Source: Bacteroidota bacterium
Lineage (GTDB): Bacteria > Bacteroidota > Bacteroidia > NS11-12g > UBA9320
Assembly: GCA_013359235.1 (NCBI GenBank)
Contig: JABWCE010000009.1
Span: 8,796-72,795, forward strand
DNA: 64,000 nucleotides
Direction: 5' to 3'
The notes beneath the pieces were generated by a model. The model made no database searches. It worked only from the letters and a program-made list of their open reading frames with translations, and was not told where the DNA came from. Below, in pieces: positions 8,856 through 15,016 of this stretch; positions within the stretch are counted from its first letter, which is position 1; each line of letters opens with the position of its first letter. Position numbers and translations under genes: made by a program.

Positions 8856-8896
8856 AAAAAATGTTTTTTAAAACTGAAAGTTTTTAGATTTATTAG

Positions 8897-9263
8897 TGGA
8901 GTTGCGGGGATTCGAACCCCGGTCCGGCGATGGAATTAATTGAGCTTTCTACATGTTTATCGTTAATTGGTTTCAGTACTTTAGGAGGTTTAACGATTAC
9001 CGTTTAAAGTCTTGTTCTGATTAATAAATTCAACAAGTATCAGAAACCTTTGTTAAATTTCTTCGGATTTTCGACCGCCTTTTACCATACCTGCCGAAGA
9101 AGAGGTATGAAGGCGGATGACATTTACCTAATCTCTGATTAGGCAGCCATTGCGAAGTTGTATTCGCCTTTTATTTTTTGAACCTTCAGATTATAGAGCA
9201 ACAGGAACAACGCTCTACATGCTTACTCATCAATTGCTCAACCCGTCAATTCCGTTCAACCCC
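8897..9263 (-). ncRNA. ssrA: tmRNA (ssrA), CCA not encoded
   Basis: The minus-strand 5' end is GGGGTTGAACGGAATTGACGGG. The 3' tRNA-like end is CCGGACCGGGGTTCGAATCCCCGCAACTCCA (T-arm GGTTCGAATCC) and pairs with the 5' end. An internal tag frame, minus strand 9168..9139, reads GEYNFAMAA-stop. Confidence 0.8.
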
Positions 9264-11215: not shown

Positions 11216-13030
11216 ATGACACAACTAAGAAACATTGCAATAATTGCTCACGTTGACCATGGAAAAACAACACTTGTTGACAAAATGCTTTTGGCATCAA
11301 AAATTTTTAAAGACCATGAAACACCAGGCGAATTAATGCTTGACAATAACGAACTCGAAAGAGAAAGAGGAATTACTATTCTTGCAAAAAATGTTTCGGT
11401 AAATTACAAAGGAATTAAAATAAATATAATTGACACACCAGGTCACAGCGATTTTGGAGGCGAGGTAGAACGTGTTTTGAATATGGCTGATGGAGTGTTG
11501 TTGCTTGTTGATGCCTTTGAAGGACCTATGCCACAAACCAGATTTGTATTGCAAAAAGCAATTCAACTTGGCAAAAAACCTGTACTTGTAATTAATAAAG
11601 TTGATAAAAAAAATTGTACTCCCGATGCAGTTCACGATGCTGTTTTTGATTTGATGTTTAATCTTGATGCAACCGAAGAACAACTTGATTTTCCAACGGT
11701 TTTTGGTAGTGCAAAACAAGGCTGGATGAGTTATGATTGGGCAAAACCAACAGATAATATTGAAGCGTTATTCGAAACAATTATTAAACATATACCTTCA
11801 CCAAATCCACCACAGGGAAATTTGCAAATGCAGATTACATCACTTGATTATAGCAGCTATACCGGTAGAATTGCTATTGGAAGAGTACACAGAGGTATTT
11901 TAAAATCAGGGCAAACGGTTTCTTTAGTAAAAAAGGATGGAACGATTTTTAAAAATAAAATAAAAGAATTGTTTGTATTTGAAGGATTTGGAAAAACTAA
12001 AACAGATGAGGTAAAAGCAGGAGATATCTGTGCAATATTTGGACTTGAAAATTTTGAAATAGGCGATACAATTGCAGATAGTGAAAATCCCGAGGCAATG
12101 CCAGGCATTTCGATAGACGAACCAACGATAAGTATGGTTTTTACTATAAACGACAGCCCATTTTATGGGAAAGAAGGGAAATTTGTAACAAGCCGTCATT
12201 TAAAAGAAAGATTGGAACGTGAACTTGAAAAAAACCTTGCAATGAGACTTGCCGAAACCGATTCGGCAGATACCTTTATTGTATATGGAAGAGGAATTTT
12301 ACATTTATCGGTATTGATAGAGACAATGAGACGCGAAGGTTACGAACTACAAATTGGTCAACCACAAGTAATATACAAAGTTATAGATGGTAAAAAATGT
12401 GAACCTATAGAAGAACTTACTATTGATTTGCCAGAGAATATGGCTGGTAAAGCTATAGAAATGGCTAATCAACGAAAAGGTGAAATGAAAGAAATGAGTC
12501 CTAAAGGTGATAGAATGATTATTAATTACCACATTCCATCAAGAGGGCTGATTGGTTTGCGAAGCGAGTTGCTAACTGCTACAGCAGGTGAGTCTATAAT
12601 GAATCATCGTTTTGTTGGTTTTGAACCTGTAAAAGGAAATATTCAGGGAAGAATAAGCGGTTCGTTAATAAGCATGGATAATGGCGAAGCAATACCATAT
12701 AGTTTAAATAATCTACAAGACAGAGGCTTCTTTTTTGTTGATCCAGGAGAACCAATTTACGAAGGACAAATTGTTGGTGAACACACACGCCCAGGTGATT
12801 TGGTTGTAAATCTTACAAAGACTAAAAAACTAAGTAATGTTAGAGCATCTGGCTCTGATGAAAAAATGAAAATAGCACCCGCTGTAAAATTTTCACTCGA
12901 AGAAGCATTAGAATACATTCAGGCTGATGAATATGTAGAAGTTACACCAAAATCTATAAGACTGAGAAAAATTAAATTAAAAGAATCAGACAGGCGAAGG
13001 CTTTCAAAAGCAATAGTTTCATCAATTTAA
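11216..13030 (+). CDS. typA: Translational GTPase TypA/BipA
   Basis: The G-domain motifs are present ([18 protein letters not shown]). Full-length EF-G-like architecture, 604 aa. Confidence 0.95.
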
Positions 13031-13070
13031 TTTATTTTTTAAAAAAATTTGACTAAATAATATAAATTAC

Positions 13071-13078
13071 TAATTTTG
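13071..13078 (+). promoter_or_regulatory. Candidate -7 promoter box TAATTTTG for tRNA-Asn
   Basis: TAnnTTTG match 16 bp upstream of the tRNA 5' end. A TTTGAC -33-like element lies at 13048-13053. Confidence 0.35.
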
Positions 13079-13093
13079 CACGCCTTTAAATAT

Positions 13094-13167
13094 TCCTCCT
13101 TAGCTCAGCTGGTTAGAGCATCTGACTGTTAATCAGAGGGTCGCTGGTTCAAGTCCAGCAGGGGGAG
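13094..13167 (+). tRNA. tRNA-Asn (anticodon GTT), CCA not encoded
   Basis: Cloverleaf by eye: acceptor TCCTCCT/AGGGGGA, D-arm GCTC…GAGC, anticodon arm TCTGA-CTGTTAA-TCAGA, T-arm GCTGG-TTCAAGT-CCAGC, discriminator G. Confidence 0.9.
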
Positions 13168-13175
13168 CTAATCAA

Positions 13176-13211
13176 AAACACTTGCTCAAAAGGCAAGTGT
13201 TTTGTTTTTTT
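13176..13211 (+). terminator. Rho-independent terminator after tRNA-Asn
   Basis: Hairpin ACACTTGC-tcaaaag-GCAAGTGT followed by TTTGTTTTTTT. Confidence 0.7.
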
Positions 13212-13214
13212 AAA

Positions 13215-13523
13215 GTGAAGTATTACATATACATAATATACAATCCTGTTTCAAAAAAGTATTACGTAGGTCAAAGTAATGATCCATGGAAAAGATTAAT
13301 ACAACACAACGAAAGCACAAAGGAAAAATATACAGGATAATATAAAAACTGGGAATTAAGAGCAGTGTATGAGGTAGAAGGAGGAAGGGGAGAAGCAATG
13401 AAAATAGAAAGTTTTATAAAAAGACAAAAGAGCAGACAATTTATTGAAAAACTCATAGATAAGAATTTTAAACCAAGCGGAATTTTGACAAAGCTGGTTA
13501 GAGTCCCGCAGGTGCGGGATTAA
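13215..13523 (+). pseudogene. Small GIY-YIG nuclease-family gene (YhbQ/UPF0213-like, ~100 aa) interrupted by an in-frame TAA at 13338-13340
   Basis: A single frame reads (V)KYYIYIIYNPVSKKYYVGQSNDPWKRLIQHNESTKEKYTG-stop-YKNWELRAVYEVEGGRGEAMKIESFIKRQKSRQFIEKLIDKNF…. The GIY…YVG…R…HN and E…MK…E…K motifs are typical of the family. The 3' end runs into the duplicated tRNA segment. Confidence 0.65.
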
Positions 13524-13628
13524 TCAGAGGGTCGTCCCGACTTATTCGGGATCCAGCAGGGGGAGCTAATCAAAAACACTTGCTCAAAAGGCAAGTGTTT
13601 TGTTTTTTAAAGTGAAGTATTACATATA
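13492..13628 (+). repeat. Degenerate direct repeat of 13107..13231 (tRNA-Asn from the D-loop to the 3' end, plus terminator, plus 20 bp). The anticodon arm and T-arm are each replaced by GC-rich palindromic hairpins
   Basis: The copies are collinear apart from three differences. catctgactg is replaced by TCCCGCAGGTGCGGGA. ctggttcaagt is replaced by TCCCGACTTATTCGGGAT. One T is missing from the terminator T-run. The terminator hairpin and the trailing AAAGTGAAGTATTACATATA are preserved. Confidence 0.8.
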
Positions 13629-13668
13629 TTAGATATAATTTTATTTTTTGTAAATATAGAAAATAAGT

Positions 13669-13676
13669 TACATTTG
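13669..13676 (+). promoter_or_regulatory. Candidate -7 promoter box TACATTTG for the TolB-like gene
   Basis: Exact TAnnTTTG match 35 bp upstream of the ATG at 13711. Confidence 0.3.
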
Positions 13677-13710
13677 TTTAATATTTTATAAATCAAAACT
13701 CTTTATTTAT

Positions 13711-15016
13711 ATGAAAACTTTAAAAATTAAAATTTACTTAAATTATTTTGTTATTTGTTTACTTTTCTTACTTTTTATTAGATGTAATCAAACAAAGCAC
13801 GTTGTAATTTCAACATCACCAGCAGGTGCAGATGTATTAATTAATGATTTAAAATATGGAATAACACCTTATGTAGGAACATTAGTATTTAAAAAATCAT
13901 TTCCTACACATAGAATTAAATTGAAATTAGAAGGTTATTATGATACCAATTTTGTAATTCAATTTTACCCTCGTGAGCAAACAAATTTTAACGTTAGCCT
14001 TAATAGAAAAATGGAAAAAGTAATTACACTTGTTGATTTTCAGCCAGTAGTTAGTGATGGTCAAGCAAAATTACAAAAGGTAACAAAAAGTACTATTGCA
14101 TATTTAGAAACTATTGAAAGTTCTTCTTCTGTTAAAACAGTTCAAAGAGTAACAATAAATGAAGATCCTAACTTTTATATAAGTGGGCCTGTACTTGCTC
14201 CAAATGGTAAAATGTTATTATAAACTCTATATGAAGTATTTTATGATGGATTTAACAAATATGAAAAAAGTAATATATATATTCAAAATACTAATTCTAA
14301 AGCTAAAACCTCAATTACCAAAGGGAATCAGATAGATTTATTTCCTTGTTTTAATACTGATGGAGAATACATTTATTTTAGTTCAAATAGAACAGGTATT
14401 CCTACAATATGGAAACTAAGAACAGAAGGTGGGGGCGGAATTACGAGTATTACAAAGTACTACAGCCGAAGATATACAACCATCTCTTTCGCCTAATGGA
14501 GACTGGTTAGCATATACTTCAAACTTAAAGTCTTCGAATCAGCCTCAGATTTGGACTGTAAATACAAGCGGTACTCTACCAACACAATTAAGAGAAGGAG
14601 AAAGTCCATGCGTTTCAATTGATGGTGAAAAGATTGTTTTTTCACGTACTGATAATAATCATTCATATAATAGAAATGATACAATAATAAAGCCTAAACA
14701 AATTTGGATAATGAACAAAGATGGAAGTGGCGAAACACAAATCAGTCAAAATACAGATTATGATATTTCTAATCCACGTTGGTCACCTGATGGCAAATGG
14801 ATAATATACTCATGTGACAAAGCCAAAGATAATAAAGGTCGCAATAATTATGATATTTGGTGCATAAAAAGTGATGGTACCAGTGAAACTCAATTGACAA
14901 CAAATGGTTCAGTGGATGATTGCCCATACTGGGGTATAGATGGATTTGTTTATTTTCGTTCTAATAGAGGAGGTTTCTGGAATATTTGGAGAGTTGTTCC
15001 AATTTTACCAAATTAA
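13711..15016 (+). pseudogene. TolB-like periplasmic protein (signal peptide, PEGA-like domain, PD40/WD40-like beta-propeller repeats) broken by an in-frame TAA (14221-14223) and a frameshift near the G-run at 14440-14455
   Basis: ORF 13711..14223 continues in the same frame after the TAA as YEVFYDGF…IDLFPCFNTDGEYIYFSSNRTGIPTIWKL (PD40 repeat) up to 14496. PD40 repeats then continue in another frame (ORF 14429..15016: SLSPNGDWLAYTS, RWSPDGKWIIYSC). Confidence 0.6.

Follow-up and report, generated by a model that had tools for sequence, protein, structure and literature searches.

What is a gene of about one hundred codons for a GIY-YIG nuclease-family protein doing between an intact tRNA-Asn gene and a second, damaged copy of the same tRNA gene? 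We examined this arrangement in a 64-kb stretch of a Bacteroidota bacterium genome (assembly GCA_013359235.1, contig JABWCE010000009.1, positions 8,796 to 72,795 of the forward strand), hereafter the window. The elements described in the initial annotation, i.e. tRNA-Asn, terminator, GIY-YIG gene with an in-frame TAA, and partial tRNA copy, all lie where it had placed them. We favour, with moderate confidence, the explanation that the locus is a degenerate copy of a selfish cassette of ~0.4 kb that resides at Bacteroidota tRNA genes, tRNA-Asn in most cases, and integrates via recombination inside the tRNA. The cassette comprises its own terminator, one minimal GIY-YIG open reading frame (ORF), a partial tRNA copy, and at least one TCCCG…CGGGA palindrome. 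In the window, the nuclease gene is killed by a nonsense codon and a second cassette is probably reduced to 17 nucleotides (nt).

The ORF of the window translates into VKYYIYIIYNPVSKKYYVGQSNDPWKRLIQHNESTKEKYTG, a stop, and YKNWELRAVYEVEGGRGEAMKIESFIKRQKSRQFIEKLIDKNFKPSGILTKLVRVPQVRD ahead of the terminal stop. With the internal stop replaced it matched PF01541 (E = 8.3e-15, 55 bits, cut-off 22.6 bits), and the hidden Markov model of the family matched each in-frame half in hmmsearch. The single interrupting TAA (13338–13340) aligns with a Lys codon of the homologues, and owing to it the gene cannot yield a full-length protein. The ORF with its TAA, the pseudo-tRNA, and the downstream gene are all identical in an independent assembly from another sample (L193; loci from other genomes and contigs are cited by L numbers), which shows that the structure is real and that the pseudogene is fixed among the samples seen. 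A second GIY-YIG gene or a further tRNA-Asn fragment was not found in the 64 kb.

Two palindromes, H1 and H2, interrupt the second tRNA copy (Table 1). Each takes the place of exactly 10 nt, and the 3' strands of both stems persist. H1 takes out the last D-stem base and position 26 together with the anticodon-stem 5' strand and its loop as far as G34, while H2 eliminated most of the 5' strand of the T-stem and the T-loop. Retained between them are anticodon nt 35–36 and the remaining loop, the anticodon-stem 3' strand, and the variable loop with the first base of the T-stem. The two GC-rich palindromes reported in the initial annotation are thus present, but the arms that it regarded as replaced are not missing as a whole. 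Its repeat of tRNA tail, terminator, and ORF start is likewise a true duplication, but one that ends at 13628 and not at 13632; the third collinear block has 77 instead of 78 nt and differs solely by one T in the T-run. The motif TCCCG-N4–12-CGGGA has two sites in the 64 kb, both in copy 2 (0.03 expected), and folding of the window palindromes as single-stranded DNA beats that of shuffled sequences (z = −4.1 and −2.5).

The last 10 codons of the ORF (KLVRVPQVRD) consist of the D-arm copy and H1, and its stop codon is nt 36–38 of the tRNA copy (T36-A37-A38). The view of the palindrome as a local event had to be abandoned: the anticodon-arm palindrome is inherited across the cassette family at a fixed position, and in the class of the window it also provides the last ORF codons (VPxxRD). 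As the first 17 nt of the ORF recur after copy 2, the repeat unit is the whole cassette and the locus is the remnant of a tandem array; GTGAAGTATTACATATA is probably the stump of a second tandem cassette. At 13494–13527, the D-loop sequence CTGGTTA is complementary to TAATCAG of the anticodon-loop 3' side, and this potential pairing lengthens the H1 hairpin to ~14 bp with a 2-nt bulge. The pseudo-copies in L001 and L012 have a D-loop G-to-A change (ttgAtta) that matches their own taatcaa perfectly. This pairing around H1 may reflect selection or chance, or may simply be built into the tRNA-Asn sequence.

Table 1 Features of the tRNA-Asn locus and its surroundings (window coordinates)
Feature	Coordinates	Strand	Details
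Intact tRNA-Asn(GTT), copy 1	13094–13168	+	ARAGORN; Rfam RF00005, 69.2 bits
Intrinsic terminator 1	13175–13211	+	12-bp stem (hairpin 13175–13203), then T-run; terminator scan, inverted repeat
GIY-YIG pseudogene	13215–13523	+	102 codons; GTG start 13215, stop TAA 13521–13523
Pseudo-tRNA, terminator, and ORF start (copy 2)	13492–13628	+	three blocks collinear with 13107–13231
Pseudo-tRNA D-loop and D-stem 3' strand, AGCTGGTTAGAG	13492–13503	+	12/12 identical to 13107–13118
Palindrome H1, TCCCGCAGGTGCGGGA	13504–13519	.	16 nt; takes the place of 10 nt CATCTGACTG (13119–13128)
Pseudo-tRNA TTAATCAGAGGGTCG	13520–13534	+	15/15 identical to 13129–13143
Palindrome H2, TCCCGACTTATTCGGGA	13535–13551	.	17 nt; takes the place of 10 nt CTGGTTCAAG (13144–13153)
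Pseudo-tRNA T-stem 3' strand and acceptor 3' strand	13552–13567	+	within direct repeat, 98% over 60 nt; third collinear block 13552–13628
Terminator 2	13573–13608	+	terminator 1 minus one T in T-run
Duplicate of first 17 nt of GIY-YIG ORF, GTGAAGTATTACATATA	13612–13628	+	
Bacteroidetes-type −7 promoter box, TAATTTTG	13071–13078	+	read from sequence; 5' of tRNA-Asn
typA	11216–13030		upstream neighbour of tRNA-Asn locus
tmRNA gene	8896–9263	−	tag peptide GEYNFAMAA; 2 kb upstream of typA

The −7 box fits TAnnTTTG, the consensus known for Bacteroidetes promoters, and is the predicted promoter of the window tRNA-Asn; the same box also lies 5' of tRNA-Asn in L063, L066, L069, and L009. An Rfam scan of 12000–15000 at E ≤ 10 recovered the intact tRNA and had nothing for the pseudo-tRNA or the palindromes; weak matches to OrzO-P and STnc370 were terminator hairpins only and were discarded. 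A group I intron in the anticodon loop was ruled out, with the tRNA uninterrupted and no intron RNA in the Rfam scan; the sole match in an NCBIfam scan, ‘group I intron endonuclease’, was below threshold. The tmRNA/typA arrangement is shared by other assemblies of the window species (L061, L062). The TypA protein of the window has 100% identity to one listed at NCBI under a Bacteroidetes MAG, in line with an uncultured Bacteroidetes source.

The architecture of the window is that of a widespread family. The closest proteins to the window ORF (50–57% identity) are likewise encoded directly after tRNA-Asn and a terminator, and the closest homologues end in …AQLIRVPMSRD before the stop or in …AQLLRV. 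Searching one genome per species with the protein alignment yielded 58 loci. Among the 43 assessable loci of Bacteroidota, Chlorobiota, and Balneolaceae, 28 have a same-strand tRNA gene at most 120 nt upstream and seven further ones a more distant tRNA upstream, behind arrays (Asn, n = 26; Met, n = 3; Ala, n = 2; Val, n = 2; Thr, n = 1; Pro, n = 1). None of 12 loci from Gammaproteobacteria and Spirochaetes has such a tRNA, near or behind arrays. Searched with the profile, 1.84 billion representative proteins gave 6136 clusters (50% identity) at E ≤ 1e-3, with 671 left at E ≤ 1e-10. The junction GGTTAGAG-TCCCGN6CGGGA-TTAATC is present in soil, lake, sediment, and reactor metagenomes (at least 120 contigs), and at least 31 of 111 junction sites close a full-length GIY ORF downstream of tRNA-Asn; none was found in viral contigs. 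The combination of tRNA, GIY-YIG gene, and palindrome-bearing tail that had drawn attention in the window recurs widely in Bacteroidota.

Recognizable classes of tRNA-encoded C-termini occur among the best 150 profile matches. Proteins of the first class end in …AQLVRVPxxRD, encoded by the D-arm and then the palindrome, with tRNA nt 36–38 as stop; those ending in …SSAG or …PVG read the D-arm in another frame and terminate at a TAG within GGTTAGAG; and those ending in …DC (GAC TGT TAA) terminate in the anticodon loop of tRNA-Asn. These three classes in tRNA-derived DNA make the fusion of the ORF 3' end to a tRNA copy, with a stop provided by the tRNA, a trait of the family. The L001 ORF crosses GCTCAGTTGATTAGAG, TCCCGATGAGTCGGGA, and TTAA into a copy of the 3' half of the local tRNA-Asn and its terminator, beyond which another remnant lies. 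Cassettes behind other tRNAs (L054 2352–2860; L049 790–2450; L039 2360–2790; L037 2076–3050) vary this theme: those at tRNA-Met have TCCCGATAGCTATCGGGA in place of the anticodon-loop ATAAT (L049 is an array), the ORF at tRNA-Val enters a copy of the 5' part of the tRNA, and the duplication at tRNA-Pro covers the tRNA 3' end plus a long flank. A palindrome-bearing full-length pseudo-tRNA-Asn in L012 (2774–2855) was called ‘tRNA-His(atg)’ by ARAGORN, which also made ‘tRNA-???’ calls in L075.

Proteins of the family have 100–105 amino acids (aa); the profile spans residues 2–74 and is followed by a short helix and the tRNA-encoded tail. The catalytic residues Y6, Y17-V-G19, R27, H31-N32, and E65 are invariant in the alignment, including the window copy. 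An AlphaFold2 (AF2) model of the homologue P0001 (pLDDT 84, the model's per-residue confidence measure) has the GIY-YIG alpha/beta fold, and Foldseek searches with it ranked 1ZG2, Slx1 (6SEH, 4XLG; template modelling (TM) score ~0.6), and the plant junction resolvase At-HIGLE ahead of the catalytic domain of I-TevI, with UvrC domains also among the matches. The nearest solved sequence is UPF0213 protein BH0048 of B. halodurans (PDB 1ZG2). Profile, catalytic residues, and predicted fold all fit membership in the GIY-YIG nuclease superfamily. Stand-alone bacterial proteins were previously placed in an Slx1-like ‘minimal’ cluster with no function assigned, and RNA roles were raised as possible for prokaryotic Slx1-like proteins (Dunin-Horkawicz et al. 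2006).

Empty sites are one indication that the cassette is gained and lost. In relatives whose TypA is 85–90% identical to that of the window (L063, GCA_020849295; L066–68; L069), typA is followed by an identical tRNA-Asn with its own terminator and then by unrelated genes, and neither a GIY ORF nor a pseudo-tRNA is present at this site. The comparison with such sites suggested in the initial annotation thus yielded three relatives without the cassette. L063 and L066 share a terminator type unlike that of the window, so the window terminator probably arrived with the cassette. In L066/L067 (4273–5815), tRNA-Asn is followed by SduA_C (Shedu-like defence) and PriCT_2/HRDC genes, i.e. by a different mobile island at the same tRNA. 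Logan contigs of the window species and relatives end within tRNA-Asn (L061, L062, L064, L065); we rejected contig breaks as a sign of occupancy, since Logan contigs of an empty-site relative also stop inside this tRNA.

Evidence for movement of a cassette comes from a pair of loci from one lake series, L163 and L178, compared using ARAGORN tRNA calls. The two cassettes are ~99% identical (3–4 differences in ~400 nt) and share the terminator, ORF, D-arm, palindrome, and tRNA positions 36–50, while 5–12 kb of flanking sequence have no similarity by blastn or tblastx; the similarity stops at tRNA sequence on either side. The tRNA-proximal terminator of L178 is of the L163 type, and the one beyond the pseudo-tRNA differs. 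A T-arm palindrome is found in L178 but not in L163, from which it follows that palindrome patches turn over fast. A near-identical cassette in an unrelated background is therefore demonstrated for these relatives, not for the window copy. Proximal and distal terminators are clearly different in 16 loci, in which the duplication ends at the tRNA 3' end, and alike in 13 loci, which are tandem or locally homogenized; the related cassettes L007, L010, L016, and L126 have the proximal terminator in common but not the distal one. Complete cassettes occur in tandem in L006 (four copies), L111 and L120 (three each), and L003, L007, and L163 (two each), and truncated arrays without a functional tRNA were found in L007 and L008. 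The original proposal of a tiny nuclease-carrying element at a tRNA gene with an att-like 3' duplication is borne out by the empty sites, the L163/L178 pair, and the 16 loci with a duplication limited to the tRNA 3' end.

In all loci examined, tCCCG…CGGGa palindromes cluster in the tRNA/GIY arrays, where they always substitute 5–17 nt of redundant tRNA copies, or of terminators. They are confined to these arrays and hence are not the generic genome repeats that would have spoken against the initial interpretation. The main site is gene positions 26–35, where 10 nt are exchanged for 16 nt (~174 copies from other genomes), with a Saprospiraceae-type variant that substitutes positions 29–35; further sites are the D-loop (13–19), the variable loop/T-stem (44–51), several T-arm positions, and the acceptor 3' strand. 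Of 61 distinct ORF-terminal pseudo-tRNAs, 28 have an intact T arm without a second palindrome, 21 have lost the T-loop motif to a second palindrome as in the window, seven contain both the second palindrome and the motif, and five have a diverged or deleted T arm. Four palindromes split the repeat in L003 into blocks of 19, 13, 11, and 20 nt, and the terminator of this locus is hit as well; at L003 2870–2900 and L027 2475–2500, a TCCCG..CGGGA palindrome plus T-run replaces or acts as the terminator hairpin.

Many Bacteroidota additionally have one to four tandem units of 73–93 nt between the promoter and the intact tRNA-Asn, each with the tRNA 5' half, a TCCCG..CGGGA palindrome, TTAATCAGAGGG (positions 36–47), and a purine-rich spacer (L009 2170–2390; L003 2235–2385; L080 3630–3920; L132 1–270; L139 5930–6205; L078 1–275). 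These units may be relics, decoys, or regulatory elements. An upstream unit in L134 (7215–7295) contains an insertion of ~70 nt in its D-loop, between GCTCAGT and TGGTTAGAG.

Taken together, these features would be explained by integration through recombination within the near-universal tRNA-Asn sequence, either during double-strand-break repair from an occupied donor or by Campbell-type insertion of an excised circle. Either route would rebuild a functional tRNA upstream and leave a 3' tRNA fragment downstream as a direct repeat. Breaks made by the nuclease in tRNA-gene DNA probably stimulate integration, comparable to SegB of phages T4 and T6, and the gene is probably expressed from the strong tRNA promoter by transcription that reads through the terminator. 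The arrays could result from unequal recombination together with recurrent cutting of the tRNA that is still intact. The palindromes would make the spare copy non-tRNA-like. They might be patches that render it uncleavable, might break the direct repeat into blocks too short for recombinational deletion, or might serve as structured entry sites for the nuclease itself.

Several observations weigh against this explanation. A separate DNA-binding domain was not found in the family protein, which makes recognition of a long site of the classical homing type unlikely; structure-selective cutting of hairpins, cruciforms, or branched DNA would be the more natural expectation, and both DNA cutting and its target are predictions from sequence and model. 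Occupied loci keep an intact, presumably cleavable tRNA beside the nuclease gene, and classical homing immunity thus does not apply. The two window terminators are of one type, so that a simple picture of one integration requires an additional event. Cassette and flank identities are similar in most pairs with alignable flanks (L003/L136, L016/L126), which points to mainly vertical descent with occasional transfer; horizontal transfer is supported by one clean pair and a few weaker ones. The estimate of purifying selection (dN/dS, the nonsynonymous to synonymous substitution rate ratio, of ~0.14) has a small base of six usable pairs, most pairs being saturated. Searches of phage records with the protein gave no match and those of plasmid records one distant match (a Legionella plasmid), so no transfer vector is known; a phage or plasmid origin is unsupported by the searches of viral contigs, phage records, and plasmid records. 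Finally, palindrome-bearing 5' halves also lie upstream of tRNA-Asn genes with no GIY gene within 10 kb (L080, L134), and the cassette model accounts for the upstream units solely as relics.

Part of this evidence suits a resident, host-serving module, whose nuclease would maintain, repair, amplify, or defend the tRNA-Asn locus and whose pseudo-tRNAs and palindromes would be by-products of recombination. We regard such a module as rather unlikely. It would agree with vertical descent, with the very old and, in Bacteroidota, wide tRNA linkage, with an ORF under purifying selection (again from few pairs), and with the lack of a phage or plasmid carrier in the records searched; SegB-driven tRNA amplification may benefit its carrier (PMC13096335). 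However, the cassette is wholly missing at the same site in three close relatives, the pseudogene in the window is fixed, cassettes that are 99% identical lie between unrelated flanks, relatives have moved to other tRNAs, and tandem arrays and truncated copies (L007, L008) resemble selfish turnover.

The palindromes themselves might be the primary mobile agents that invade spare tRNA copies, with the GIY-YIG protein as their mobilizing enzyme, in the manner of a REPtron, or as a mere neighbour. Since the six central palindrome bases were unconstrained in the metagenome search, they allowed an unbiased test of covariation: of 60 distinct sequences, 53 have a Watson-Crick match at stem pair 6 (CG, n = 22; AT, n = 18; TA, n = 8; GC, n = 5) and 45 at stem pair 7. 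Conserved ends and a covarying inner stem would be expected of such agents, as would their many independent insertion positions in an AT-rich host (31.8% G+C in the window), their presence in loci without a GIY ORF, the gain or loss of one palindrome between two 99%-identical cassettes, and the identical palindrome TCCCGCACTTGCGGGA at three positions of one pseudo-tRNA in L003. Yet they are not dispersed, with both window sites in this locus and nearly all others in tRNA/GIY arrays; target bases are deleted with no target duplication; and the copy at the anticodon site has a constant position and serves as ORF codons at the same time. We therefore judge this alternative improbable.

An action at the RNA level is even harder to sustain and appears very improbable to us. 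By analogy to type III toxin-antitoxin systems, tRNA-Asn or its precursor would be the target of the GIY-YIG protein, and pseudo-tRNA units transcribed from the tRNA promoter and set apart from the ORF by a terminator would be uncleavable decoy or antidote RNAs. The order of promoter, tandem tRNA-like repeats, terminator, and small nuclease ORF in L009, L078, L139, and others recalls ToxIN-type loci, and the upstream units lie within the transcribed leader. The palindrome deletes the anticodon stem up to G34 while the D arm still pairs (G-U for G-C), and the possible RNA roles of prokaryotic Slx1-like proteins (Dunin-Horkawicz et al. 2006) would be in line with this scheme. But the fold and the nearest structures are those of DNA nucleases, the upstream units are missing in the window and many other loci, palindromes also occupy the T arm, acceptor strand, and terminators at variable positions, and Rfam had no match in the pseudo-tRNA. 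In an RNA helix, G·T mismatches should outnumber A·C mismatches in the palindrome stem, and no such asymmetry was detected (small numbers); Watson-Crick covariation without this asymmetry indicates that palindromy itself is maintained and nothing specific to an RNA helix.

The remnant of an ordinary integrase island, or a chance local duplication with unrelated hairpins, is scarcely credible: direct repeats of the 3' part of a tRNA are the classic attL/attR signature and the relative L066 has another island at tRNA-Asn, but the 323 nt between the window repeats hold the GIY-YIG ORF and no recombinase, the same architecture occurs in more than 150 independent contigs, and the ORF-tRNA fusion is conserved.

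Returning to the selfish cassette, a bolder version can be put forward tentatively, with clearly less confidence than the cassette itself. It would represent an undescribed class of selfish element of ~0.4 kb, with a structure-selective, Slx1-like GIY-YIG nuclease as its sole gene, host recombination for its integration, the tRNA as a universal attachment site, and palindrome patching. When redundant tRNA copies break at their D, anticodon, and T loops, repair would then copy in a TCCCG…CGGGA palindrome, and the result would be disabled tRNA arrays, with decoy-like 5' halves upstream and tails downstream, around one intact gene.

If the cassette explanation is true, stand-alone Slx1-like GIY-YIG proteins of Bacteroidota power what is, to our knowledge, one of the smallest autonomous DNA parasites. 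An essential, conserved gene would be entered without an integrase or intron, by supplying a replacement piece of the gene that host recombination joins. The cassette would be a chromosomal counterpart to SegB and extend the tRNA-gene cutting and amplification biology of phages to bacterial chromosomes, and the limitation of palindromes to spare tRNA copies could reveal a mechanism of break repair or immunity. For annotation, such loci are a source of tRNA calls that are truncated or spurious, of unusual protein C-termini, and of breaks in assemblies. The dead copy in the window points to a widespread and apparently unstudied element.

Full-text literature searches, whose coverage excluded most subscription journals, revealed no published description of tRNA-fused minimal GIY-YIG cassettes, their tRNA repeats, or their palindromes, and several known systems share some of these features. 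UPF0213 (BH0048), Slx1, and At-HIGLE have the same minimal fold and are the best sequence and fold matches, but at ~25–27% sequence identity. Branched DNA and junctions are the substrates of Slx1 and HIGLE, so the cassette protein may likewise cut in a structure-selective manner. A link to tRNA genes, tRNA-fused C-termini, palindromes, and mobility are not mentioned for the minimal cluster by Dunin-Horkawicz et al. (2006). Integrase islands and prophages resemble the cassette in their tRNA target, the restored functional tRNA, the distal 3' tRNA repeat, and tandem accumulation at one tRNA. Unlike them, the cassette has no tyrosine or serine recombinase (the GIY-YIG ORF is the only one in 13231–13492), measures ~0.4 kb, reads its single nuclease ORF into the repeat, and has its spare repeat overwritten by palindromes. 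REP/RAYT systems (repetitive extragenic palindromes and their transposases), GC clusters of yeast mitochondria, and Rickettsia palindromic elements likewise involve short palindromes rich in GC, whose ends are conserved and whose stems covary, within an AT-rich genome; they can lie inside genes and, in the REP/RAYT type, adjoin a small nuclease gene. In contrast to a REPtron, the enzyme is GIY-YIG and not a Y1 (IS200/IS605-like) transposase and the palindromes are not dispersed in the genome; they replace bases instead of inserting and are restricted to redundant tRNA copies. A ToxIN-like layout of repeats, terminator, and ORF is found in some relatives but not in the window, and the fold is that of a DNA nuclease.

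The closest parallels are homing endonucleases. SegB of T4/T6 is a GIY-YIG homing endonuclease encoded in a tRNA gene cluster, with a preferred site inside a tRNA-Asn gene and recognition of the T-loop motif GGTTCRANTCC (PMC2330249), and it causes segments that contain tRNAs to be amplified in tandem by a recombination-dependent route (PMC13096335). In both systems the nuclease gene lies among or next to tRNA genes, and the T-loop motif of SegB is the stretch that H2 deletes from the spare copy in the window; SegB is copied into alleles that lack it, and its tandem amplification has a counterpart in the tandem cassette arrays. SegB differs in being phage-encoded and in having a distinct DNA-binding part and a 27-bp recognition site, whereas the cassette protein is a Bacteroidota chromosomal protein of ~100 aa with the catalytic domain only. 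The Pfam match reflects the shared domain only, the cassette protein model being nearer to Slx1/UPF0213 than to the I-TevI catalytic domain, and the ORF-tRNA fusion, tRNA 3' direct repeat, and palindromes were not found in the two SegB papers (PMC2330249, PMC13096335). With free-standing homing endonuclease genes in general, the cassette shares presence/absence polymorphism (L063, L066–68, L069) and, in L163/L178, horizontal spread; it departs from the I-TevI/Seg type in its lack of a separate DNA-binding domain and in the intact tRNA, which makes immunity of the occupied allele doubtful. As judged from sequence, the cassette would be best viewed as a selfish GIY-YIG gene of the free-standing kind that targets tRNA genes and combines several features for which we know of no described counterpart.

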